Source of the DNA: a virus
Lineage: Duplodnaviria > Caudoviricetes
DNA length: 64,000 nucleotides
Direction: 5' to 3' (one strand)
IMG/VR virus record: IMGVR_UViG_3300003375_000001
Span: 174,518 to 238,517 of that record
Below the pieces are notes generated by a model that ran no database searches, was not told the DNA's origin, and saw nothing but the letters and a program-made list of their open reading frames with translations. This document shows, in pieces, positions 4,628 to 52,325 of the stretch (its first letter is position 1; each line of letters starts with the position of its first letter). A program made the position numbers and the translations under genes.

Positions 4628-7600
4628 TTACTTGAGCTGAATGCCCGTATACAACTGAGGAGATACCTTTTGAAGTCGCTTACGTTCCTTCTTGAGGTCT
4701 TCAATGTTAGTGATGACAAACCCTTTCTTTATCATCAGAGCCAAGTGATGGTCTAGTTTAGCCAAGTTAGACACCGTACCGTAAAGTTGATTTTTGGTGT
4801 CGGCCTTGTAGAAACGAACACCTGGAACCTTAACCTTGTTGATAGCCTTCATTGTTGCAGGGTGACCTAACAACGGCATAGCCACATATACTTGATCTTC
4901 GTATATCAGTGGATAAGGGAACAGCAGAGACATGTCAGCATTGGCCTTGTGCTGCATTTGGAAGAACGACCTTACAGTAGCATCTGTTGCCATGCCAAAC
5001 TGGTGCACCGCGTTCTTTCTTTGCTTCATCCAACGCTGATAAACGTTCTTACAAGCATTGTTAGACTTGGCATCGAAAGTAAACCCCGCGTCTGTCCAAG
5101 CCTTGAACAGCTTGAACATATGCTGAGGCGTCTTCATGACAGCGTACATATAAGGCTGAGGCTGGGTGAAGCCGATACCTTCAAGAGCGCGAGCACCACC
5201 CGGGTTCTTTTCAACGCCATCAAACTCTAGGTTTATGAAGTCATTGACCACTGTAATTTCCAGAGCAACGTGGATGCGCTCGTCTGTGTCTTCAGCCTTC
5301 TTCTTGGGGATAACAACCTCGGTTGCGTTCTTTACCTGGATGTCATATGGAACATCGAAAGGGATGTCACCTGACTCTTTGAGAATCAGTGTACGCATGT
5401 CACCGTGGTTAGTCTGCGCTCTATTGATAACGAAAGCGGCAAGCTTGTTAACTACGACCTTGTTACCACTAGACAATTCGATGCGTAAGGCCCTCTTACT
5501 TAGGCCCACGATCTGACCATCGCCATACTCCGTGTGAACCCAGAAGTTAGAGACCTTGTTGAATTCTGCGCGACTAAGCTCTTTCTGCGCAATGGACTCT
5601 TTTTCTTCTCCTTCGTCCTCGTCATCCTCTTCAGAGTCGTCCAAGTCCTGCATAAGAAACTGATCGTAACGAACAAGCCCCAACTCCTCAGCCTTGTATA
5701 TGTCAAGACCTGGCACATAAGGGACTCTATACATCAGCTTAGAATTAGGCAAGTTGGGTGCGCGCACAATTGGGGTCATGCGGCAGGAGCCGTCTTCGTT
5801 CATGTCTTCCGGATGTTGCTCCCGATACGCGGCGTAGTCCTTGAACTGAGCTACGTGCATTGCCGTGTATGCTTCAAATGCAGGGCGCAGCTCATCGGCA
5901 GTAGTTTCGTTCGACCTAGCAATAACGTCTAGAGTCATCGGAAACAGGTCAGGGCTAGGAACGTTCTCATCACTGTATAGAGGGTTACCCGCTTCCTCGA
6001 ACTTAGTGATAACAACCTTCTTAGATACCAGGTAGGCTAGCTTGGTAACGTCGATTGTTCCAGCTGCGATGACCCAGTCTATGTATATGAACTTGCGCTC
6101 TTCCTTGACCTTGATGTTAGGTCTGCCAATACGGGAGTTACCTTGTTCAAGAGCACCAGGCGTCCAAACGGAATCAACACGAATTAGCCTAGAGCAATTG
6201 TGAACTAGAACTGGTATAGCAACGTCAGCTTTACCTTCTGTAGTGCCACACGCAAAGAAGTTATGGTTTCCTTCTACTTCAAGGTCATACTTATAGTCAC
6301 CAATGACTTTAGCACTATGCAAAGGTGTGATAGCATTAACGGTAAGATAGTGGTTGTTTATAAAGGAATCCAGTCTAGCGTGAACTTTCTCTAGACCTTC
6401 GCTATCGTAACAGGCATCAGCTTCTATAATAAGACACTCTATACCCTTGTCAGCATAGGCTTTTATTAGCTTACGATCATGTACTTTACCTCTCTTTGTA
6501 TATTGGCGAGCACCAATAACCTCAACGACACGCAAAGAACGACCCTTGGAGCTAGTGTGCTCGGTAGAAATAAAGTCTGGATTTTTAACTACGCGTTGTC
6601 CGTCGATTTCAAGGGAAACGAAGTACTGACCGTCGCCCACGTACTTCAAGCCAGGTATTTCAAGCGAAATTACATTACGCTCAGGCTTATTAGGAAGTGT
6701 TCCTTGAGCCTTTAGCATGGCGCGTACGCCTTTGGCTGTAAAAGAAGGATCTGTGGCGTGACGGGCCTTTACTATAGAACTACGGAGCTTACGTGACGCA
6801 GGCTTCAGACACGCGTCCGATATAGCATTACCCCAGTCAACGTCTTCGCCTGTTTCACGTTTGGCTTCCCAAATACCTTTTGATACAACACTCCGGGCCT
6901 CTCGATTTTCTTGGATTTCCCAGTAGGCATTTCTGCGTTTGGAAATAAGTTCTCGATAAGCAGCGTCTTTCCAATTAGCTTTAGACCTCTTAGACATAGC
7001 CTTACGGGCTTCATCTGTAGAGCAAGCTTTTGCTATGGCTGCACCTACAACCTTCTTATAAACGTCGTCTGCCCAAAGTGCTCTTAGTCTATTACTGTGG
7101 GCTGCGCGGCGCACAGGATCTTTCCATGCTTTTTTGCCCCCTTCCGTTGTTCTCTTACGCGCAGCCTTACCTGCGGGCATGGTCTCAAACGCTTTACGCT
7201 TGGCTACGATTAGTTCCCTGTAAGTATCGTCCTCCCAACGCGTGGTAGCATGAAACACTTGAGTTTGCTTATAGTTTGCAAATTTCTCTGTATCAATACC
7301 ATGCACGGTTGCTCTGTGCTTGTTTAATCCAGGACCTGGGCGGAAAATATAGCCGCACTCTGCGCACGCCACGTTCTTTACCTGACCTCTTGGGATAAAC
7401 GAGCCGTCTGCGTCCAGTTTGAGCTGATCAAATTTACGGCCGTAAGTAATAAGCTGGTCACCTACTTTAAGGTCTTTGGCTTGAACTTCCTTACCGCCTT
7501 TCAAAAAGAAAGTATGGTTGTCCGTACACTTTACCTGTGCCCGTTCACCTGACTTATTGTCCTGTGTGGACACGCTAACAAACTTGTCCTTATCACGTAC

Positions 7601-10600
7601 TTTGGTACGGATCTTTCGAAGAATCTTACGAGGTTCTATCTTCTTAGTTTCCAAGTCATAAGACAGAACTTCTGTGATGGCGTCGTTCTCGTAAATATCC
7701 TTAATAGGCAATGACGTTTTACGATCAATCAGAACAGGTGTGTCCGCTGTGAAGCAGAATTGAAGGTTCAAGCCCGTGTTCATAGAAACTTCAACACCCA
7801 CCATAATTTTCTTGTTGGGGTTGGTTTCAAACTCGGCTCCGCACTCAGCCTTGTTAGAAGCCGTATACAGAATTGCTTGGGCTTTAAGCTCTGGAGGTAA
7901 GCACTCGAAGATAGTCTGAGCCGACTGATTGTAGTTACAGAAAATCAGTACCTTACCTGGCGTATTACTATCCAGGTGCTTCTTAACCAGTTCAATTACT
8001 TTAAGAACCTTAGGGCTGACTCGGTCTTCACCTTCCAGCATAACTGTAGCCAGAGGGTCGGCGGCTGGAGATATAACGTAGCGTTCTAGTCGTTGCAGAT
8101 AGGGCTTGAGCAGGCTATCGATGTCAAGATCGTCTGCATTGGACTCCTCGTCTTCACCGTCCTCTGATTGCCCCGTAAGCAAGAACCTCAGTGCCTTATT
8201 CTTAGACATCTCCTCTTGAATAAGCAAGGTTACTTCTTCAAGAATAGACTTGTAGACGTGTTGTTGTTTAGGTGTCAAAGACACCATGTGCGTATTTTCT
8301 TTCAGCAGAGGCAAGAAGGCAGCCCACTCTTTACGTTTAGCGTTAACCACTACCACGCTAGACTTAAGACGAGACATAATGTCGTTTTCCGCACCTGGCT
8401 TCCACGACATGACCTTGTTGCCACGAACGTCATCGGCATACTTATTGATGAAGTCTGCTTGACTACCAAAGATGGAAGGATCAAACAAACTCACCTGCTT
8501 AACCAAGTCCATCAGGCTGTTAGGCGTAACGGTACCAGAGGCTAAACGTTTGTAAGGGATATCGGAGATAAGACGAGCTACCGCGTTCTGACGGCCTGTT
8601 GTGCCCTTCAAGTAATGGGACTCATCGCAAGCCACGTAGTCAAACTTGAACTTGCGCAGCATTTCGACAACAGGAAACACATTGGTAGGAGCTACGCCAT
8701 AACCAATCGGCGTCTTTTTACTCTTACCATTACCAATGTTATAGTCTGTCACAACCACAGTATTAACGGGGGCTGTGCGGATCATCTGTTCCAGACCACT
8801 CAGGCCATGGCGACGAGGACTCATAGTATAGCTATTCACCGCGATCACGTTAACGCGACCTTCAGTGAAGTACACGAACTCCTTGACGTACTGGCCTACA
8901 AGGTGTGAAGGGCACATGATAAGGACACGGTGTACGTGACCTAACTTCATTTCCTTCAGCGCGTCTGTCAGAATCATTGTGGTCTTACCACCACCTGCGC
9001 TAACTGCTAAGATAGCAAACTCTGGAGAATTCCTAAGAACGTTTTGAGCACGAACTTGGTGAGGCATTAAGCCTTTGCCTTCACCCACAAAAGGAATAGA
9101 CTCGCCTTGGTAGTTGGCATCTACACCTTGGTGCTCATACTTTTTACGAGCCTCACGGTCTGTCGAAAACGTAGTTTCGATATCCTTTCCGTACAGCTCT
9201 GCTATCTTAGTTACCGCCACAACGCTACACACGGTTTGAACCGTGTAGGCTATGCACAATGTCTCAAACGAGGTGGCAGCCAGTTCGTTAACAAGAGCGA
9301 TAGCTTCCCAAATAGCCTTCTTACTATTGAGGTTAGTCTCCACAGTGAGAATGTCGGCGAAGGTGATATCACTGGGTTCTGTCTCAGCCTCGTCGTCTCT
9401 AGCCCTAATCGTTTCTACCATTACGGGCAAAAGCGTTTTCAGGTCTGGCATAGGAGTTTTCACATTGCCATTGCCTGTTGACACTGATCGCAATAGAGTA
9501 TAGGCATTGCCTCCGCGTTCACCGTTCACTGGCTGACGAAGCAGGCGGGCCGCGTGAGTTGCATTAACCGGATACGAGCGATCAAGAGACTTGACCATCA
9601 ACTTACCATCACGGTTAGAATAGGCAAACTTCAGGTTAACCCAGTCGGTAAATATAGGCTGTGACGGTGGAAACTGCTTACGTTCCGTAGTCTTGTCAAG
9701 AGGTATGGCACATAGCACACCGTCTGCCTGAGACAAGGCAGCTCTAAGCTCCGAGTCATACTTACCTACGTTGTTTGACTCTTGAGGTATGTACCATAGA
9801 TCCGCGTTTTCGTCTATGAGAATACCGTGTTCATTCGCGCGAGACTCACCCTTTACGCCTTGAATAGACTGAGCTATAGACGATAAGGGGAGTGCAAACT
9901 TTGGAGGGTCACGGAAGTAGCCTAGGCGGCCGTCAATCCATTCACGGATAAGACCATAGAAGTCAATTGGTCGAATCTGCATCCAAGGTGTCTGACACAA
10001 GTATTCTGCTTGCATTGACGTTACTTCGAACGTCAAAAAGGTTGTGACCTGTTCGCCTACAACTGCTATGGACACTTGACCGTTGTTCAAACCCTTAAGT
10101 GCCGCAAGATAAGCAGTCTTGAAGATACCTCCAGTATCGCGGAGAGACTCGACGGACTGGGTATGCGTTACTTGGATAGTCACAGTTTCGTTAGGGAACT
10201 GAGGTGTCAACGAAACCGCTGGATCAGTATATAGACCTTCTGGCTGGTCATTACCACAGAATATTTGCTTCAGTTTTTCTGTCCAGGTGCTGGCCCCTTC
10301 AAGAGGCATAGTGAACACAGGAACAGACACTTCAAACGTGTTGTTGAGCTTCTTTACCTTTACAAGGCTAGACGCAGCGGAATCAGTCCAGAACTCTGCT
10401 AGCTGATTGATAGCCTTGTTGTACTGCGCGCGATCACGACCAGAAGGTGGACGTTGAACCAGTTGAGGATATAGGACAGCCGTAGTGAAAGCAGCCCAAG
10501 ACCAGCGAGAATTCTTGATCCTGTTGTTATACAGGAACATGAACCCCGTTTTCATGTCTAAGGCACGCACGAAGGCAGGGTTAGAGAACGCGGGGTCTGC

Positions 10601-10723
10601 CTTCAGCGTAGAAACAGGCCGTTCAGACGAAGCCTTGACAACATAGTTGCGTGCTATCTGACGTGCCATTTCCATGACACGGTCTGACCGCGCCACGGAC
10701 TGAGGTTTGATTAGGATTTTCAT
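4628..10723 (-). CDS. SNF2-family (SF2) helicase/ATPase precursor with one intein
   Basis: Q motif LMPHQ, Walker A AGGGKT, Walker B CDESH, motif III SGT, motif VI QGNSRIGR; intein in motif V (TGLNLQF|CSRLI). About 1511 aa after splicing. Confidence 0.92.
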   Translation of the reverse strand: MKILIKPQSVARSDRVMEMARQIARNYVVKASSERPVSTLKADPAFSNPAFVRALDMKTGFMFLYNNRIKNSRWSWAAFTTAVLYPQLVQRPPSGRDRAQYNKAINQLAEFWTDSAASSLVKVKKLNNTFEVSVPVFTMPLEGASTWTEKLKQIFCGNDQPEGLYTDPAVSLTPQFPNETVTIQVTHTQSVESLRDTGGIFKTAYLAALKGLNNGQVSIAVVGEQVTTFLTFEVTSMQAEYLCQTPWMQIRPIDFYGLIREWIDGRLGYFRDPPKFALPLSSIAQSIQGVKGESRANEHGILIDENADLWYIPQESNNVGKYDSELRAALSQADGVLCAIPLDKTTERKQFPPSQPIFTDWVNLKFAYSNRDGKLMVKSLDRSYPVNATHAARLLRQPVNGERGGNAYTLLRSVSTGNGNVKTPMPDLKTLLPVMVETIRARDDEAETEPSDITFADILTVETNLNSKKAIWEAIALVNELAATSFETLCIAYTVQTVCSVVAVTKIAELYGKDIETTFSTDREARKKYEHQGVDANYQGESIPFVGEGKGLMPHQVRAQNVLRNSPEFAILAVSAGGGKTTMILTDALKEMKLGHVHRVLIMCPSHLVGQYVKEFVYFTEGRVNVIAVNSYTMSPRRHGLSGLEQMIRTAPVNTVVVTDYNIGNGKSKKTPIGYGVAPTNVFPVVEMLRKFKFDYVACDESHYLKGTTGRQNAVARLISDIPYKRLASGTVTPNSLMDLVKQVSLFDPSIFGSQADFINKYADDVRGNKVMSWKPGAENDIMSRLKSSVVVVNAKRKEWAAFLPLLKENTHMVSLTPKQQHVYKSILEEVTLLIQEEMSKNKALRFLLTGQSEDGEDEESNADDLDIDSLLKPYLQRLERYVISPAADPLATVMLEGEDRVSPKVLKVIELVKKHLDSNTPGKVLIFCNYNQSAQTIFECLPPELKAQAILYTASNKAECGAEFETNPNKKIMVGVEVSMNTGLNLQFCFTADTPVLIDRKTSLPIKDIYENDAITEVLSYDLETKKIEPRKILRKIRTKVRDKDKFVSVSTQDNKSGERAQVKCTDNHTFFLKGGKEVQAKDLKVGDQLITYGRKFDQLKLDADGSFIPRGQVKNVACAECGYIFRPGPGLNKHRATVHGIDTEKFANYKQTQVFHATTRWEDDTYRELIVAKRKAFETMPAGKAARKRTTEGGKKAWKDPVRRAAHSNRLRALWADDVYKKVVGAAIAKACSTDEARKAMSKRSKANWKDAAYRELISKRRNAYWEIQENREARSVVSKGIWEAKRETGEDVDWGNAISDACLKPASRKLRSSIVKARHATDPSFTAKGVRAMLKAQGTLPNKPERNVISLEIPGLKYVGDGQYFVSLEIDGQRVVKNPDFISTEHTSSKGRSLRVVEVIGARQYTKRGKVHDRKLIKAYADKGIECLIIEADACYDSEGLEKVHARLDSFINNHYLTVNAITPLHSAKVIGDYKYDLEVEGNHNFFACGTTEGKADVAIPVLVHNCSRLIRVDSVWTPGALEQGNSRIGRPNIKVKEERKFIYIDWVIAAGTIDVTKLAYLVSKKVVITKFEEAGNPLYSDENVPSPDLFPMTLDVIARSNETTADELRPAFEAYTAMHVAQFKDYAAYREQHPEDMNEDGSCRMTPIVRAPNLPNSKLMYRVPYVPGLDIYKAEELGLVRYDQFLMQDLDDSEEDDEDEGEEKESIAQKELSRAEFNKVSNFWVHTEYGDGQIVGLSKRALRIELSSGNKVVVNKLAAFVINRAQTNHGDMRTLILKESGDIPFDVPYDIQVKNATEVVIPKKKAEDTDERIHVALEITVVNDFINLEFDGVEKNPGGARALEGIGFTQPQPYMYAVMKTPQHMFKLFKAWTDAGFTFDAKSNNACKNVYQRWMKQRKNAVHQFGMATDATVRSFFQMQHKANADMSLLFPYPLIYEDQVYVAMPLLGHPATMKAINKVKVPGVRFYKADTKNQLYGTVSNLAKLDHHLALMIKKGFVITNIEDLKKERKRLQKVSPQLYTGIQLK
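6197..7756 (-). mobile_element. 520-aa intein in SNF2 helicase with zinc finger and PD-(D/E)xK-type nuclease
   Basis: Begins CFTADTPV, block B KCTDNHTF, block F YDLEVEGNHNFFA, ends VLVHN with +1 Cys; internal CAEC...H...H finger and NPDFI...VVEV nuclease-like motif. Confidence 0.93.
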
Positions 10724-29270: not shown

Positions 29271-30809
29271 TCAGTCCAGCCACCATTGAGTTTGAGACTT
29301 TGTTGGACGATTGTTTTGTTGATTGAACTTCGTCAGACAGAATTCAAAGTAGGCTTTTACCGACTGGGCTGGCTTCTTTCGCTTGGCAATAAGAGCTTTG
29401 AGCTTGGCTTTAGTTTCGGCTAACTTGGTTTTCAAGTTGTCCTGATCAAGCTTAGCCAATTGCCTTACCTTCAGTTCCAGAATTTGATTAGCCTGTTCAA
29501 CCGTTATCTTCAAACCTTTGGCAATCAGCTCTGCGGTGTTTGGCTTACGCAAGGCATTCATGATAGTGTCCAAATGATCACACGCATGAATGAGAAGTTC
29601 CATATAGGCAATGTGCTTTTCTACTTCACCTATTTGGTAGTCAAGCGAATCGGCTTCAAGTTTTACTCGAAACTTGAGCCAGGTCATGGCAAGCTCAGGA
29701 ACAGACAGAGCCTTGAAAGTTGTGTCCGCTTCGTTGCGACCATTGCGCACTCGAAGTTTTCTATCCGACACATAGACGTTGTAGCTGACCTTACTTCGCG
29801 TGAGAGCCTTGACCTTTTCGGCTACCGCGTTAAAGTCATTCATATTCACTGTCTTGCGAACTTGAATAACGTAGCTAAGGCCCTTACCTGAAGACACACC
29901 TTGCACCATGCTCTTCCACCATCTGGACTCTTCCAGTTGTCGCTTGGTAGGAGCTTTCTTTGACTCGGGGAGCTTTCCTTGCACCTTTGCTATCACAGAG
30001 CCTATGTTTACTTCAGGGGCAAACTTGTTCCACGAGATAGTCTTTTTGCTGGTGTCTATGTCTAGCGGAGACTCAAACTCGATGGTCGCATTAGGCGTGT
30101 TCATCAAGTTTAGGATGGACTCTCGATTCGATTTTGACTTTACTACCTGAGCACCCCAGGAAGTATTGAAACGTAGGCCCTTAGCAAAGTCTACAGGCGT
30201 AACCTCCTCTCTGTCTAGCATCCTACACATCAACGGCAGAAGAGACTCAGGAGTAAAGCCAGGTAAACTTGATTTGGTACCGTAACCGATACCCGTTTGA
30301 GAGTTGAATAGAATGTTTGGCAGCAGGCAGGGCAGATATACAGGCTCTTCATCCTTGTCATCATAGTTTGGCATTATTGGCGACACCGCCAAATAGTTTG
30401 GCTGCACAAACTGCCGACCGTATATAGACAAGCGAGCAGCAGGATACCTCATGGCCGCTGCGGGGTCTACTAGGTTACCCCAGTTCCCTTGCCCTTCAAG
30501 AATAGGTACGTCGCACGTAGCGGCGACAACCATAGCTCCATATATGGAAGAATCCCCGTGGGGGTGGTACTTACCAATCACGTCACCAACGATACGGGCT
30601 GCTTTGGTATACTCTCTAGCTATCTTTGAAGAGGCCCACGTTATGCGTCTGGTGACAGGCTTTAAGCCGTCCTGCAATGCTGGGGTGGCACGTTCCTCGT
30701 TTACTTCTGTGCCATAAGCTTTCAACGATACTTTCGCGTAGTCTCCAAGTTCTACGCGGCCTACTTCAGCCCGCTTCGTTGATTTAGCGGCTGGTGGTTT
30801 CTTTGTCAT
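29271..30809 (-). CDS. gyrA: Type IIA topoisomerase subunit A (GyrA/ParC family), no C-terminal pinwheel
   Basis: DGLKPVTRR, GKYHPHGDSS, GQGNWG, catalytic AAMRY; only 512 aa, so probably not a supercoiling gyrase. Confidence 0.93.
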   Translation of the reverse strand: MTKKPPAAKSTKRAEVGRVELGDYAKVSLKAYGTEVNEERATPALQDGLKPVTRRITWASSKIAREYTKAARIVGDVIGKYHPHGDSSIYGAMVVAATCDVPILEGQGNWGNLVDPAAAMRYPAARLSIYGRQFVQPNYLAVSPIMPNYDDKDEEPVYLPCLLPNILFNSQTGIGYGTKSSLPGFTPESLLPLMCRMLDREEVTPVDFAKGLRFNTSWGAQVVKSKSNRESILNLMNTPNATIEFESPLDIDTSKKTISWNKFAPEVNIGSVIAKVQGKLPESKKAPTKRQLEESRWWKSMVQGVSSGKGLSYVIQVRKTVNMNDFNAVAEKVKALTRSKVSYNVYVSDRKLRVRNGRNEADTTFKALSVPELAMTWLKFRVKLEADSLDYQIGEVEKHIAYMELLIHACDHLDTIMNALRKPNTAELIAKGLKITVEQANQILELKVRQLAKLDQDNLKTKLAETKAKLKALIAKRKKPAQSVKAYFEFCLTKFNQQNNRPTKSQTQWWLD

Positions 30810-46264: not shown

Positions 46265-46714
46265 GAGAAGCCAGGCACTTTCTCCCAGATAAAGTGCTCA
46301 AGAGGAAAGCTGATTGTCAGCATGATCCAGAATGAAAGTGACTTTAACTGCGACCTACATTCGTGATAACACTCAACTAGCTTCCCTTGTTTATCTATAT
46401 GCTGGTGAGACACGGTCTTAAAACCCAAACACCTTGCGCATAGCTGGTGACATACCTTCAGCCATAGATGCTTTGTCTTCTTCGTCAGCAGGTTCGTCGT
46501 ACTCGCCATCGATAACTTTCTGCCTCAGTTCGTGAAGACCTGCCTCATGCAACAACCCAGCTAACGCCGTTTTGCCACATATGTACTTTTCATTCTTGAA
46601 GTCATGGTACTCACCGGCTTTAGCCTCTTCAATCATACGCGTGATGAGAGGCGTAACCGGCGTAACCTTTTCCAGCTCAACTACGAGGTCTGTGCGTGTG
46701 TCTTTCTTAGTCAT
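46237..46714 (-). other. Two small hypothetical CDSs (46418-46714; 46237-~46420, membrane)
   Basis: AGGA SD before 46714; overlapping stops and starts. Confidence 0.6.
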
Positions 46715-46722
46715 GATGTTTC

Positions 46723-47244
46723 CTAGTAAGGGTAAAGGAGGACGCCGGAAACGCCGACGGGTTCTTTCTTAGCTGTGTCAAAGGATATAAAACAGTGACC
46801 GTCGTCTACAGTACGAGGTTTTACTCTAACCACTCGGACTTCCTTAGGCGCGCTGCAAGTCAGGTCTTCGAAGCTACAAGCTATTAAAGGATCACCTGAC
46901 TTCAAGTCCTTGGCCATAACGCAGCCTTCTTGAACCCTGGTGTCTCCGTTTTTATAGCGAAGCAGGGGGAACACGGTGTGGGGTAAACAGGTCAACTTCT
47001 TACCTGTTGACAAATTGATTTGAACTACCGAAGTACCAGAGTCTTTTGACTGTGACACGCCAAACGCCTCGGTTAAGTGATAGCCTCTGTCCTTGTTCCA
47101 AGATACTACAGTAAACCTAGCGTTGGCAAAACTAGACTGACCTTCTATAACCCATGGATCGTCAATCCACTGACTGACTTCCGTTATGTCCTGTCTACCT
47201 GGCAGTCTTAACTGCAAAGTAGGATTGTATAGAACGTTAGACAC
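46723..47244 (-). CDS. Stand-alone, catalytically dead Hint-fold (pseudo-intein) protein
   Basis: Block A-like VLYNPTLQLRLPG (Cys1 to Val), block B-like VVQINLSTGKKLTCLPHTVF (TxxH lost), AKDLKSGDPL, block G-like SGVLLYPY (HN lost). Confidence 0.75.
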   Translation of the reverse strand: MSNVLYNPTLQLRLPGRQDITEVSQWIDDPWVIEGQSSFANARFTVVSWNKDRGYHLTEAFGVSQSKDSGTSVVQINLSTGKKLTCLPHTVFPLLRYKNGDTRVQEGCVMAKDLKSGDPLIACSFEDLTCSAPKEVRVVRVKPRTVDDGHCFISFDTAKKEPVGVSGVLLYPY

Positions 47245-47959
47245 CTAGCAACTCCTTACGTGTAGACACGTCGTCCGACATGAGCAAGGTGAAGTACGTG
47301 TTCTTTTCAGCCATCTCCGTAGTCACTTGTTTAAGCCTACGTGTGGCAGGGTTAAAGACAGCGTACTCGATCAGCTCACTAGGAACTTCACCCCAGCCTT
47401 TGATATGCTGAATATGTAAGTTAGCGGGTGCACCCAATCCCTCTAACGTGGTTCGAAGATCGTTAGCTGATGGGCCGAACACGTATTCACCCTTGTAGAT
47501 GGAATAGTACTCAGGAACGTCTACAAGGTGAATATAGCCGGCCTTGAACAAGCCGGGCATATACTTGTAGAACAAGGCCAACTCGAGGTTGTTGATGTGG
47601 CCACCGTCGGGATCGGGGTCACTCAACACACAGATAAAGTGTGTGCGCAAGTTCCCGATAGGGTTCTCAAGGTTCTTGGCGTCAAAGCCTATCATGGCCA
47701 AGATGTAGACGATCTCTGCGCTAAGAAGTACTTTCTCGGGAGACTCCCGAAACGCATTCATGATTTTTCCCTTGAGAGGAAGGATCTCTTGATACCTGGA
47801 GTCACGAGCCTCGCGGCAGTTGTGAACTACTACGCCGTTGGCGATAAAGTTTTGGTTTTCATACCTATGTCCTCGGGTAGTTTGATTCGTCACGTCGTAT
47901 ACAGGTATAGGCTTGTCAAGCTTAATTCGCTTGACAGACGTGACTGTCCTCATTTTCAT
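47237..47959 (-). CDS. gyrB: Split-intein C-half (47 aa) fused to the C-terminal TOPRIM part of topoisomerase subunit B
   Basis: MKMRTVTSVKRI...VYDVT...NFIANGVVVHN|CREARD...ILPLKGKIMN...DPDPDGGHI...KGWGE. Confidence 0.93.
   Translation of the reverse strand: MKMRTVTSVKRIKLDKPIPVYDVTNQTTRGHRYENQNFIANGVVVHNCREARDSRYQEILPLKGKIMNAFRESPEKVLLSAEIVYILAMIGFDAKNLENPIGNLRTHFICVLSDPDPDGGHINNLELALFYKYMPGLFKAGYIHLVDVPEYYSIYKGEYVFGPSANDLRTTLEGLGAPANLHIQHIKGWGEVPSELIEYAVFNPATRRLKQVTTEMAEKNTYFTLLMSDDVSTRKELLGV
47819..47959 (-). mobile_element. IntC of naturally split intein
   Basis: Blocks F and G ending HN, +1 Cys; net charge about +5. Confidence 0.92.
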
Positions 47960-47996: not shown

Positions 47997-49241
47997 ATGA
48001 AAGATACCGTAGCTGAAAGATTGTTTAAAAACGGGGTAATAGCCCGAGGCCAGTGCCCCATAGAGGAAAAGGTCGTTACACACCTACTTAAATTAACAGG
48101 TCGTGAACTCAAACAGGCTTGCTGGCTAAAGTTACCTAAACAAGCCTTGGACTTACTATTAGCTGCTACCATAGATGCACAAACATCCTTAGGCCTGTCT
48201 AGACCGTCTACGTCACACAAAGGTATTTTAGAGGACGCGTTTGTAGCTTACCTATTAAACGACAAGATGAAGTTTAAATGCCCAGGGTGCAACCAGTTTA
48301 CGTTACCTATAGCAGAGAAAGGTACAGGCCGGTATCGTAATTCTTTTTGCACCATAGCGTGTATGAACGCGTGTGAAGAGGTAGTGAGGAGAAGGAGAGG
48401 GACATGCAAGGCACGCTATGGGTATGAAGAAGCAAACCACAACCCAGAAATAGCTGAAAGACGAAACGCAAACGTGAGAAGGGTCCAGAAGGAAAAATAC
48501 GAAGATATTCAAAGGTCAAAACGAAAAACGGCGTTAAGTAACTGGGGTGTAGAACATCACATGCACCATTCTGTATTTAGAGCAGAAACTAGCCGACGAA
48601 ACGTAGCTTTGAACACTTCAGCGTTAGGTAGAGCCGCGTACAAAAAGCGAAGTGGTTTTGACAACCCTATGCATGACCCAGCTACCCTAAAGAAAATGTT
48701 GGACACAAAAATAGCTAGGTATGGCACAACGTCTTCATCACCTCACATGAAAGGCAACAAAGGTAGGAACAACTTTAGTTCTACAGAAATGCAACAGGCG
48801 ATAAGAACGTCTGACGGGAAATTGAAAGGACGGGTGATGAAACAGCAGCTTACGGTTAAGGTAAGCTTTAGAGGGAAAGGGCTACTGGTAGGCTCAGGAT
48901 TAGAAGCCTCATTTGTTAAACGCCTAGAAGAAAACAAAAACATCAAGGCTGTAGTTCAAGGAGATAAACTCCCTACTATAAGTGTCGGCACTAAACGTTA
49001 TTTTCCTGATCTAGGGTTAATAAGCACCTCAGGAAAGAAAGCTTTAGTAGAGGTTAAGTCTCCTTTCACTTTCAAAGCAGAAGGAAGCAAGGTTATAGCT
49101 TGTGCCCTAGCTGCCGTTAAGGTAGCAAAGAAACACCAGGCTGTTTACGTCATGGCTGTGTGTGAAGGGAAGAATGAGTGGAAGACAATGGTCAACCCTA
49201 CCAAAGCACAGTTAGTAAACTACTTAGTATCCATTATGTGA
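47997..49241 (+). CDS. Free-standing putative homing endonuclease (Zn finger, YG-x repeats, TnsA-like PD-(D/E)xK domain), inverted between the intein halves
   Basis: CPGC...FCTIAC; SGLEASF...YFPDL...LVEVKS; AAGGA SD; 3' end overlaps the IntN stop by 18 nt. Confidence 0.85.
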   Translation: MKDTVAERLFKNGVIARGQCPIEEKVVTHLLKLTGRELKQACWLKLPKQALDLLLAATIDAQTSLGLSRPSTSHKGILEDAFVAYLLNDKMKFKCPGCNQFTLPIAEKGTGRYRNSFCTIACMNACEEVVRRRRGTCKARYGYEEANHNPEIAERRNANVRRVQKEKYEDIQRSKRKTALSNWGVEHHMHHSVFRAETSRRNVALNTSALGRAAYKKRSGFDNPMHDPATLKKMLDTKIARYGTTSSSPHMKGNKGRNNFSSTEMQQAIRTSDGKLKGRVMKQQLTVKVSFRGKGLLVGSGLEASFVKRLEENKNIKAVVQGDKLPTISVGTKRYFPDLGLISTSGKKALVEVKSPFTFKAEGSKVIACALAAVKVAKKHQAVYVMAVCEGKNEWKTMVNPTKAQLVNYLVSIM

Positions 49242-52200
49242 GACTACTTTCTTACCGTCTAAGTCTTCAGCCTTAGTATACAAACCGTCATCCGTTAAGA
49301 ACAAATGGTCGGGAGTACACGTTATAACCGTTCCGTCGTCTAACTCGACCTCTACTAGATCGCACGTCTCTTTTGTAATTATGGGTACAGAGAAAGTTCC
49401 CGTCATTATCTTGTTGGTATCAAAGTCTAAGAAAGGTCCTTGCCATTCCAACGCGTTCTCATGCAAGTAAGATAAAGACTGAGGACCTCGTTCTGTTTGC
49501 ACTATAGTGCTTCCGATAAAACACCCGCCAGCCGCGCTCTCTCCTTCCAGAATGAAAAGCTCACGCTCGGCAGGAGTGCAGTTAGGTGACAAGGCAGCGT
49601 TATGCTTCATGCCACCTTGTGACGCCTTGCGTAGCTTACCAATAACGTCTTTGCTTGCTTTGAACTGAGTCTTTAACTGCTTGAGGTCAAAGCACCTTTG
49701 GCATAGAGCTTCAGTTAGAGCCTTGTTTTTCTTGAAGAAGGTAGTAAACTCTGCTAGCAACGTCTCCTTAACTGGTCCGTCACCACGTTCATCAACCAGC
49801 TTTTCCTTAGTCTGGGATGCGAAGCGAGGGGAGCTCATCTTGACGTTGATAACGCCTAGCACACCGTCCTTCAATTCGTTAAGCGTAAACTCCTGGCGTT
49901 TCTTGACGAAAGGCTCAAGAGCTGCAAACATAGCAGAGAACAAGGCATTGAAGTGAACACCTCGCTCTGGGTTGGACAACCCGTTCGTGAAGGCCTGCAT
50001 ACCGCAACCGTCATAGTTGGTGAATTGAAGCACTACGTCCATCAACACGTTTGTGAAGTGAAACACAGCAGGGTCGATAGGCTTAGACTGGGTCTTTGCT
50101 ACCTGATCAACGACAAACTGCTTGGGTCCGCCAGGATGACAGATGGTTTTGTTCTTGCCTGAGTGATGCTGAATCTCAACCGTGAAGCTAGGGGTAAAGT
50201 AGCAGGCCATGTTAGCCCACTCGAAAATGAACGTACCCGGAAAAGACTTTGCAGAAAAGATGCTGGGATCTGGCTTGAAGTGAACTAGCGTGCCTTTTGT
50301 CAGAGGCTTATTACTAAAAGGGCTAGGATAGGTAGCGCCGGAAAGCTTCTTTAGCTCTTGTGTAAGCTTACCTTGCTTAAAGCCAATAGTCCACCACGCA
50401 CCCTTATAGAAAGTAGTGACATTGAAAAACGTTGACAAAAAGTTTGTGGCTTTTATGCCGATCCCGTGCGAATTGGATACTAGCACTCCAGGCTCCACAA
50501 AGAAACAGTGTTGTCCGTCCACCGTAAGGTCGTAGACCGAAACAGCTTGATTTACCTTGTAAGGCCGTACTCCAGTAATTCGGTGGTTGAAGTTATTAAC
50601 AAAGTCTTCAAGACCTTCAAAGGTTATTCCGTGCTCGTATTCAATAATGGCAAGACCAAATTTCCACTGAGGCGCACAAGAAGCCTTAACTAATGAGTAT
50701 GCTTCTTCTGTAAGAGACTTAGCTTTCTTAAGGCTAGAAACAAAGTAAGCTACCATTTTGCGCAAAGACTCGGGGGCGCGCATACGAATTTCAGCTTGCA
50801 TCATTCGAAGCTCTTGAGCTTCTTCGGACTGGTCTTCATGCAATACAAGAGGCCCACCACTCAGCAGGTGTCTTTTGAACTTTGTCAGCGTGGTATACCT
50901 ATACAACTGAGCATACCGTCCATAGATAACAGCCGAGGTTTTTGGCCTACGATTAAACTCATGAGGCGTAACCTCAGATATATCGTCAAACGTCTCCAAG
51001 TGTTCACGCCACACCTTAAGCGACTTTTGCCAGTTAGCGTTCTTGCTAAAGGTTACAGGATCTGTGCCAGTTCCATTATGTAAATCTTCGAGCTTATCTT
51101 CTGCAATAGGTGACCTTCCAACCTTTGACTTTAGTCCCAACAGGTACTCATCAACCAAGGTTACAAGGTCAGGCTTTGATATATAACGAAGAGCCTTGAG
51201 CCAGGTTATCTCACTATTCCTACGAACAGCACTATAGGTAGAAGACGTTATTTTACCAAAGCGTACTTTAGCTCTAGCTGCTATACGAATAACTTTTTGC
51301 GTATAGGACTGGTAAATAAAGTCTTCGTCTACATTTTGTGCACTAAACTTAATTGAATTATGTGCCCTTAAGTCGGCCTGTTTGACGCGAATGTGCACTT
51401 TTGCATATTTGGATCGGCTTTCTGAATGTTCTCTGTGATGATCAGACACGGTGAGGACTTTAAGGTTAGAAGGCCTATTGTCCTTCCGTATAGAGTTCTT
51501 ATGGTGTACCTCATCCACGTGAGGACGAAGTTCATACTCATGATAGTGCTGTCCTACACGCCGGTGGATATGGAACCATTTGCCTTGTTCTGTTTGATGT
51601 TGATACCCATCCCGATCTTCTTTATAGTAGGTAGACACTAAGGAAGTACCAGGCAAAAGATTCTTAGCCTGAACACCTTTTATAGCTCCACCTCTACGTG
51701 TATAGAATACATGATCAGGTGTACATCTAACCGTAGAGTCATCGTCTAGAGTAACCTCTACAAGGTTACGTGTCCGCTTCGTTAATTGGACGTGGCTGAT
51801 TTGAGAGGGTACGCACTTACCTGTGACCTTGTTATAAGTCATCAAAGGTATAGGCTGAGGGTTGTTGCACCAACGTTCGTATAACTTTTCTAGTGTTACA
51901 GTCTTTCCACTCAACAGCCGAATCTTTGTATCACCTGTGAAACACCCTCGACTAACCTCGTAAGCAGAATCCTTATCCAGCTTGCCACCTGCGTGCAACA
52001 CAGAGGTAATAACCTGCAGCCCTGGAAGCTTGTACTTGTTACCAGAGATACTGTCCGTTACCTCCATCAAGCCAGTCGGCATACCTCGTCCGTCATCGTG
52101 AACGTAGTAGCTTCCGTCTTCCGCTATCATGAAAGTAGCCTTGGTAGCATGACCGCCAAGAGCCTCGTCCACTACGTTGTCCAGGGCCTCTCGACAGATG

Positions 52201-52325
52201 GTAAATACACCCGCCGCGTCAGTAGGGCCAATGTACATACCCGCTTTAGCGCGTACGGCTTGAACAGACGTTAGCGCCTTAAGAGCACTTTCGTCATACA
52301 CTTTCTTTTGAGGTGAGGTAGCCAT
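49224..52325 (-). CDS. gyrB: Topoisomerase subunit B N-terminal part (GHKL ATPase, start of TOPRIM) with a full intein and a terminal IntN
   Basis: RAKAGMYIG, EALDNVVDE, DDGRGMP, LHAGGK, FASQTKEKL, LFILEGESAAGG|C. Confidence 0.95.
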   Translation of the reverse strand: MATSPQKKVYDESALKALTSVQAVRAKAGMYIGPTDAAGVFTICREALDNVVDEALGGHATKATFMIAEDGSYYVHDDGRGMPTGLMEVTDSISGNKYKLPGLQVITSVLHAGGKLDKDSAYEVSRGCFTGDTKIRLLSGKTVTLEKLYERWCNNPQPIPLMTYNKVTGKCVPSQISHVQLTKRTRNLVEVTLDDDSTVRCTPDHVFYTRRGGAIKGVQAKNLLPGTSLVSTYYKEDRDGYQHQTEQGKWFHIHRRVGQHYHEYELRPHVDEVHHKNSIRKDNRPSNLKVLTVSDHHREHSESRSKYAKVHIRVKQADLRAHNSIKFSAQNVDEDFIYQSYTQKVIRIAARAKVRFGKITSSTYSAVRRNSEITWLKALRYISKPDLVTLVDEYLLGLKSKVGRSPIAEDKLEDLHNGTGTDPVTFSKNANWQKSLKVWREHLETFDDISEVTPHEFNRRPKTSAVIYGRYAQLYRYTTLTKFKRHLLSGGPLVLHEDQSEEAQELRMMQAEIRMRAPESLRKMVAYFVSSLKKAKSLTEEAYSLVKASCAPQWKFGLAIIEYEHGITFEGLEDFVNNFNHRITGVRPYKVNQAVSVYDLTVDGQHCFFVEPGVLVSNSHGIGIKATNFLSTFFNVTTFYKGAWWTIGFKQGKLTQELKKLSGATYPSPFSNKPLTKGTLVHFKPDPSIFSAKSFPGTFIFEWANMACYFTPSFTVEIQHHSGKNKTICHPGGPKQFVVDQVAKTQSKPIDPAVFHFTNVLMDVVLQFTNYDGCGMQAFTNGLSNPERGVHFNALFSAMFAALEPFVKKRQEFTLNELKDGVLGVINVKMSSPRFASQTKEKLVDERGDGPVKETLLAEFTTFFKKNKALTEALCQRCFDLKQLKTQFKASKDVIGKLRKASQGGMKHNAALSPNCTPAERELFILEGESAAGGCFIGSTIVQTERGPQSLSYLHENALEWQGPFLDFDTNKIMTGTFSVPIITKETCDLVEVELDDGTVITCTPDHLFLTDDGLYTKAEDLDGKKVVSHNGY
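49227..49523 (-). mobile_element. IntN (99 aa) of naturally split intein
   Basis: CFIGSTIV...VEVELDDGTVITCTPDHLF...AEDL then stop; net charge about -11. Confidence 0.92.
50472..51944 (-). mobile_element. 491-aa intein with HNH endonuclease in the ATP-lid motif of subunit B
   Basis: EVSRG|CFTGDT...CTPDH...VHHKNSIRKDNRPSNL...VYDLTVDGQHCF...VLVSN|SHGIG. Confidence 0.93.

Follow-up and report, generated by a model that had tools for sequence, protein, structure and literature searches.

Inteins are usually viewed as selfish inserts that either splice or decay. The HO and WHO endonucleases of yeasts are free-standing proteins that come from an intein-like homing element and have kept a LAGLIDADG nuclease together with a DNA-binding domain, the two parts that account for their function (PMC7282813). 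BIL and pretoxin-HINT domains are found inside larger secreted or toxin proteins, where they keep their catalytic residues and release cargo (PMC3482391). Fractured genes that combine split inteins with a free-standing homing endonuclease were reported by Dassa et al. 2009 (PMC2677866), and no mention of gyrB, gyrase, or topoisomerase was found in that article's main text. The terms "stand-alone," "free-standing," "degenerate," and "domesticated" do not occur in a broad review of inteins.

The stretch of DNA analyzed here (64 kb; hereafter the window) forms the end of a 238.5-kb phage record that is complete and bears direct terminal repeats, and a single sequencing run, a DNA run of a freshwater metagenome, contains it. 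The window encodes a fractured gyrB gene followed by a 173-amino acid (aa) open reading frame, ORF173, which is probably an exapted, noncatalytic intein relic, likely serving as a binding module of the topoisomerase II operon.

The split gyrB locus and the gene at its end

The two halves of the window gyrB flank an endonuclease gene on the opposite strand, and ORF173 follows the second half (table 1). The endonuclease gene starts 37 nt from the start of IntC, from which it diverges, and its 3' end converges with that of the gyrB N-terminal gene in an 18-nt overlap (49224-49241). Because of this placement, a promoter serving IntC-TOPRIM and the Hint gene would lie inside or upstream of the endonuclease gene; a promoter and terminator scan of the locus gave nothing beyond shuffled expectation. 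Away from gyrB, a weak Intein_splicing match (E 1.6e-3) was seen at about 6248-6355, inside a 2031-aa ORF (4628-10723) of the window, and a strong intein match (E 2e-17; G000:C1:167606-168046) falls in a gene just beyond it.

Table 1. Features of the topoisomerase II genes and ORF173, in window positions
Feature	Position	Strand	Description
gyrB N-terminal gene	49224..52325	(-)	ATPase and transducer exteins, intein 1, C-terminal IntN
Intein 1 (HNH domain)	50472-51944, aa 128-618, 491 aa	(-)	within gyrB N-terminal gene
IntN	49227-49523, aa 935-1033, 99 aa	(-)	C-terminal in gyrB N-terminal gene
Homing endonuclease, free-standing, DUF7487 / PD-(D/E)xK-like	47997..49241, 414 aa	(+)	antisense between gyrB halves
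IntC-TOPRIM gene	47237..47959, 240 aa from MKM	(-)	start set by homology to the 240-aa L007 gene
IntC	47819-47959, 47 aa	(-)	start of IntC-TOPRIM gene; ends VVHN/C
TOPRIM plus GyrB_C extein	47240-47818	(-)	rest of IntC-TOPRIM gene
Junction	47237..47257	(-)	AAGGAG 47257-47252, 7-nt spacer, GTG 47244-47242, upstream TAA 47239-47237
ORF173	46723..47244	(-)	173 aa plus stop; stand-alone protein of predicted Hint fold, no exteins, no splicing residues
gyrA-like topoisomerase II subunit	29271..30809	(-)	17 kb from gyrB; directly after gyrB in relatives

ORF173 is a real gene. Its GTG start codon and the TAA stop codon of the IntC-TOPRIM gene fall within an 8-nt overlap (GGTGTCTAA), and a perfect AAGGAG ribosome-binding site lies 7 nt 5' of the GTG. 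The start is secure because the first in-frame ATG does not occur before residue 110 and homologs use the same GTG. The reading frame is free of exteins, internal stops, and frameshifts. The original prediction, made from the sequence of this DNA by itself, had placed the ORF start inside the IntC-TOPRIM stop and described an uninterrupted frame without exteins, and both observations are confirmed, the former by the GTG and TAA coordinates and the 8-nt overlap. The overlap is also present in two contigs carrying homologs, L007 and L005, and the full arrangement of AAGGAG, GTG, and 8-nt overlap occurs in three lineages; on a further contig, L006, a single base (3854) separates the annotated gyrB and Hint genes. 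Judging from its own ribosome-binding site and a start codon overlapping the gyrB stop, ORF173 would be co-produced with the TOPRIM half.

A +1 frameshift producing a GyrB-Hint fusion, in the manner of Hedgehog-type C-terminal autoprocessing, was considered and dropped in view of the strong ribosome-binding site and start and the lack of a conserved nucleophile at the junction. DNA binding through charge was dropped as well, the pI values of the family proteins (6.1-8.6) being unremarkable.

The region 3' of the Hint gene differs among contigs. In L007 a terminator-like hairpin (GGGGC-TTCG-GCCCC) stands immediately 3' of the gene, followed by about 900 nt without a called gene (L007:10525-11438), and the variant contig L010 has three small ORFs at this place. 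In the window, a 98-aa ORF (46418-46714) lies 8 nt past the ORF173 stop; it has no family assignment, and neither L006 nor L007 has a conserved counterpart at the corresponding place.

Fold and active-site positions of ORF173

Structure models and profile comparisons agree in predicting a complete Hint fold for ORF173. The ESM Atlas contains the exact sequence, and the Atlas model (pTM 0.73) matches its ten nearest cluster types with TM scores of 0.67-0.78 over 136-162 of the 173 residues. Intein or Hint Pfam families are listed for nine of these ten cluster types, the tenth being replicative DnaB helicase with no Hint family, and PT-HINT clusters are among the structural neighbors. The ORF173 chain also reached a pLDDT of 82-84 with ESMFold2, within a complex run that included IntC-TOPRIM.

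Local hhalign comparison of the four-member family with an alignment of six inteins gave a score of 52.5 (P 5.7e-8, probability 94.7%), compared with at most 21 for the reversed family alignment and more than 30 column shuffles, and at most 18 for 44 unrelated phage ORFs run against the family profile. The six inteins were the window split intein, window intein 1 minus its HNH insert, the L007 split intein, the L006 mini-intein, and the TOPRIM insertions of phages BcepSauron and RSL1 that are described below. With hhalign in global mode, ORF173 residues 5-173 cover the whole intein from end to end, and blocks A, B, F, and G of the inteins are collinear in the family, at an ORF173-intein identity of only about 14%. 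A BLASTP comparison with intein 1 aligned residues 46-127 with 161-236 and residues 137-153 with 593-609, in order, at an E value (0.18) that is weak alone. When a poor AlphaFold2 model was compared with 48,161 PDB chains using VIA-align, the top five were all inteins (Prp8, gp41-1, MchDnaB-1, PI-SceI domain I, and PI-PfuI; Z 4.7-5.5, residues about 80-160), a ranking that we use as corroboration only because the Z values are low in absolute terms.

These results bear directly on the original prediction, which had aligned the ORF end to end with an intein through a series of short matches. The full-length alignment was reproduced by hhalign in global mode, with shuffled and reversed controls scoring far lower, and the piecewise matches reappeared in order in both BLASTP and hhalign. 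The fold check that the prediction had proposed likewise came out in favor of a Hint domain, in nine of the ten Atlas rows. Two more distant homologs introduced below, P0004 and the L022 ORF, belong to the same Hint/intein Atlas families by features, and the latter also by structure.

It is extremely improbable that ORF173 is a chance ORF or has some other beta fold. Such a reading would explain why Pfam and PHROGs gave no match (the Pfam intein/Hint models stayed below threshold), why neither the single sequence nor the profile retrieved anything significant from the PDB by sequence (top match BIL domain 2lwy, E 0.23), and why the AlphaFold2 models were poor (pLDDT 39 from one sequence and 46 from four), with no Foldseek match for them in the PDB. 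It would leave unexplained the concordant Atlas, hhalign, and VIA-align results and the existence of conserved homologs.

The residues on which splicing depends have been replaced. Intein position 1 corresponds in ORF173 to L5 in the profile alignment or to V4 in the alignment of the original prediction, neither of which is a nucleophile, and to I in P0004. Where canonical inteins have TxxH in block B and end in HN followed by C, the window protein (P0001) has LPHT and YP followed by Y; the same C-terminus accompanies HPDS in P0006 and NPDT in P0002, and P0004 has TPET and ends in KQ followed by E. The block B His is Thr or Ser in all four aligned members and, by eye, is also missing from the L022 ORF along with the canonical C-terminus. 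The loss of Cys1, TxxH, and the terminal HN that had been predicted for ORF173 was therefore confirmed in all members.

The boundaries of the protein are close to those of an intein: ORF173 begins 3-4 residues before block A and stops at the +1 position, and P0004 continues five residues further. ORF173 nonetheless has none of the attributes by which an intein is recognized, namely in-frame insertion in a host protein, a position-1 Cys/Ser/Thr, TxxH, a terminal Asn, and a +1 nucleophile. With the position-1 residue, block B His, terminal Asn, and +1 nucleophile gone, splicing or cleavage by any known route is excluded. The conserved residues of the family are mostly those of the Hint core and therefore do not point to a new functional surface. 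Active inteins score 95 against each other in profile comparison, and the family scores only 28-36 against inteins, for which reason we dropped the idea that ORF173 is a recent duplicate of the neighboring intein.

Family, synteny, and selection

An exhaustive HMMER search of 1.84 billion representatives and a word-seeded search of 5.8 billion protein clusters yielded a family of four protein clusters, P0001 (the window protein), P0002 (51% identity), P0006 (53%), and P0004 (36%), to which we add a distant 180-aa ORF (ORF180) on contig L022. There was no match to 50,697 phage records in tblastn searches with P0001 and P0004, nor any from megablast of the 9-kb locus, and family scans of IMG/VR, metagenome, and genome contigs found no additional member, retrieving only a contig already in the set. 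The exhaustive search also matched P0003, a 3,295-aa repeat adhesin, and P0005, a 514-aa repeat protein, both of which were judged spurious because their scores sum over tandem repeats.

Every member lies directly 3' of a phage gyrB-like gene. P0002 comes after a GyrB_C tail, which it overlaps by 8 nt as in the window. P0006 is represented by eight contigs, the longest of which, L007, has a gyrB-N gene, an antisense DUF7487 endonuclease gene, a 240-aa IntC-TOPRIM gene, and the Hint gene, with intein 1 absent; the shorter contigs show the covered parts of the same layout. P0004, on L006, follows an unsplit 805-aa GyrB with a contiguous canonical mini-intein (C1, TPDH, HN/T) at the same GG/C site. 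The Hint gene is accordingly older than the gyrB fracture, since its homolog accompanies an intact intein at this site.

The most distant candidate was found by scanning with the GyrB middle region. L022 is an IMG/VR contig of 178 kb (GyrB 53% identity) on which ORF180 is located between the gyrB stop and the gyrA start, abutting both. The hhalign score of ORF180 against the family is 27-30 (P 3.5e-4 to 1.5e-3), compared with maxima of 19.4 for 15 shuffles of its own sequence and 18 for the 44 unrelated ORFs, and the only matches of its Atlas model (pTM 0.59) are Hint proteins (TM about 0.6). On the basis of this modest profile score combined with position, size, and predicted fold, we take ORF180 as a distant fifth member. 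Its placement between gyrB and gyrA makes the Hint gene a member of the topoisomerase operon, not an intein accessory.

The L022 region (L022:6015-15433) is rich in inteins, which occur in the gyrB ATPase domain (HNH; the site of window intein 1), at the GG/C site, in TOPRIM, and in gyrA. The GG/C-site intein is broken in two, with IntN-HNH and IntC encoded by separate genes that share 4 nt (ATGA). A single reading frame runs through the abutting gyrB, Hint-like ORF, and gyrA, interrupted only by TAA codons. The Atlas cluster nearest to P0004 is also the one nearest to the L022 ORF; it has no name and comprises 115 viral proteins with a length of about 162 aa. Stand-alone Hint-like proteins of phages may form a larger population, as yet unnamed.

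Downstream of the Hint gene the neighboring genes vary among lineages, with no wider conserved module visible. This variation, and the presence in the Atlas of clusters of viral proteins of about 160 aa with similar features, would suit a role unrelated to topoisomerase or intein, for example in host takeover or counter-defense, with the Hint fold as a scaffold and the position after gyrB an accident. We regard such a role as unlikely given that coupling to the gyrB stop is maintained in every lineage, even after relocation of gyrA, and that PHROGs, which includes phage counter-defense families among many others, gave no match.

The Hint gene is under purifying selection. Between lineages, pN is 0.22-0.57 and pS, which is saturated, is 0.62-0.83 (0.33 and a saturated 0.79, respectively, for the window and L007), and dN/dS is about 0.2 for the closest pair, L007 and L005 (68% identity). 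The open frame and a length of 172-174 aa are kept down to 26-34% identity, with 180 aa in L022. The expectation of a dN/dS well below 1 was thus borne out, by the closest pair and by pN values below pS throughout. Between the window and L007, the Hint protein is 54% identical, IntN and IntC 55% each, the endonuclease 62%, and the exteins 80-85%, so that the Hint gene is constrained, yet no more than the mobile parts of the locus.

Divergence as fast as that of the mobile parts (54% identity vs. 80-85% for the exteins) also fits a weakly constrained relic. In its extreme form, the gene would be a functionless remnant of a mobile element, a decaying intein copy kept by linkage to an essential gene. 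Evolution at the pace of the locus's selfish parts, confinement to a very small clade, and the lack of an evident new conserved polar site would all be in keeping with this, but we consider it highly unlikely, because an open frame of fixed length (172-174 aa; 180 in L022) has outlasted the saturation of synonymous sites, pN is well below pS, and the start codon and ribosome-binding site are retained.

Eighteen other phage gyrB loci (Xanthomonas phage PhiXhv-15, Burkholderia phage BcepSauron, Ralstonia phage RSL1, L013, and 14 IMG/VR loci) have neither a Hint-like ORF nor a GG/C-site intein. In most of them gyrA comes directly after gyrB or overlaps it, and because of this prevailing adjacency the Hint gene looks inserted at the gyrB-gyrA junction. 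RSL1 and PhiXhv-15 each have a small ORF between the two genes (117 and 67 aa, respectively), neither of which is related to the family.

A different insertion, of about 180 aa, was noted after DPDPDG in the GyrB TOPRIM of BcepSauron (L002:5001-6104), RSL1 (L003:5001-6107), and L029 (an IMG/VR phage; aa about 539-720), whose records annotate the genes concerned as plain topoisomerase. It begins with Pro (PFV...), ends SxN/C, and scores weakly against inteins with hhalign (19-27). The insertion could be an intein that has decayed, or one of an atypical kind that lacks the nucleophile at position 1.

The GG/C-site intein was found in 4/4 assessable Hint-bearing lineages versus 0/18 Hint-less loci. 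A maximum-likelihood tree of the intein-free GyrB middle region groups the window, L007, and L006 with full support and weakly places the Hint-less L029 between this group and L022; monophyly of the Hint-bearing lineages was not rejected by the AU test (p 0.21). As a single origin of both the Hint gene and the GG/C-site intein is compatible with the tree, their co-distribution amounts to one event and carries no statistical weight.

This distribution separates what stands of the original prediction from what does not. ORF173 had been described as a catalytically dead Hint protein coupled to the split-intein C-half, possibly a chaperone or regulator that forms a three-component splicing-control system with the two intein halves. 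The Hint fold, the loss of catalysis, the coupling to IntC-TOPRIM, and the purifying selection were upheld, but specificity for the split intein was not, given L006 and L022. Homologs had been expected to co-occur specifically with split-intein alleles, and the L006 homolog sits beside a contiguous mini-intein. No homolog was found beside an intein-free allele, as the prediction would have it, although the presence of the GG/C-site intein in all four lineages represents only one event. With a gene that predates the split and the order gyrB-Hint-gyrA in L022, the three-component system as originally formulated is not supported.

A less restrictive proposal is that the dead Hint protein binds the GG/C-site GyrB intein, whether split or contiguous, and alters the yield or timing of splicing. 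The 4/4 versus 0/18 distribution is what such a helper would produce, as is an amino acid divergence of the Hint protein equal to that of IntN and IntC; its profile score is weakly closest to GG/C-site inteins (36 vs. 28 and 21), and it is apparently co-translated with the IntC-bearing half. We nevertheless think this proposal unlikely. The co-occurrence is compatible with a single evolutionary event, the cis-splicing contiguous mini-intein that is also accompanied by a homolog should require no helper, the complete and closed Hint fold that is predicted offers no obvious site for IntN or IntC, and the resemblance to the intein is remote at about 14% identity. To our knowledge, moreover, the natural split inteins characterized so far splice without helpers.

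Origin, function, and relation to known systems

We return to the reading that we prefer, an exapted intein relic in the topoisomerase II operon. ORF173 would be a former mini-intein that kept the Hint fold and lost its host protein together with the residues for splicing and cleavage. A single origin appears probable, in a small clade of freshwater jumbo phages, where an intein-derived segment would have landed at the gyrB-gyrA junction of the operon. The abutting order gyrB-Hint-gyrA persists in the most distant member, L022, and in the window lineage gyrA would have been relocated later, with the Hint gene remaining beside gyrB. The protein most likely acts as a noncatalytic binding module, and its putative partner could be either a subunit of topoisomerase II or the GyrB precursor that bears the intein. 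Complex prediction, run on the pair IntC-TOPRIM and ORF173, scored 0.01, a value that speaks neither for nor against binding.

Two more specific roles can be imagined, neither of which we would put forward as more than an outside chance. The dead Hint protein might be a dedicated trans-acting partner of the GG/C-site GyrB intein that times the appearance of active topoisomerase II. Alternatively, it might be a noncovalent adaptor whose old extein-binding cleft grips GyrB at the C-terminus and GyrA at the N-terminus, the trace of a protein-splicing junction that once lay between the subunits. If either were true, ORF173 would be the first viral Hint fold put to new use as a subunit for regulation or assembly.

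A bare intein fold that lacks both host protein and chemistry, is under selection, and is tied to an essential replication operon suggests that the Hint fold can be reused by viruses as a protein module like any other. As a compact, expressible protein of 173 aa, ORF173 has neighbors against which binding and effects on splicing can be tested directly: a natural split intein, the contiguous version in a relative, and two topoisomerase subunits. Should it prove to have no effect, the locus would be a clean example of intein relics persisting beside genes that attract inteins.

Compared with class 1 mini-inteins, such as the GG/C-site GyrB intein, gp41-1 (PDB 6riz), and Prp8 (6owu), ORF173 shares the predicted fold, the size of about 150-170 aa, and the order of blocks A, B, F, and G, and it spans, within 3-4 residues, position 1 through +1. 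It differs in having no host protein, position-1 Cys/Ser/Thr, block B His, terminal Asn, or +1 nucleophile. The arrangement of the window gyrB matches that described by Dassa et al. (2009) in that IntN ends one gene, an endonuclease gene follows, and IntC begins the next; the window differs in that its endonuclease gene is antisense. BIL and pretoxin-HINT domains resemble ORF173 as Hint-fold domains outside classical inteins, whereas ORF173 is a single-domain protein without cargo, catalytic residues, or any other Pfam or PHROG domain. HO and WHO are likewise intein-derived, free-standing, splicing-dead, and retained, and differ from ORF173, a bare Hint domain of mini-intein length in which Pfam and PHROGs detect no nuclease. 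Among published cases, we regard these yeast endonucleases as the nearest precedent for an intein derivative that is retained, stands free, and no longer splices.
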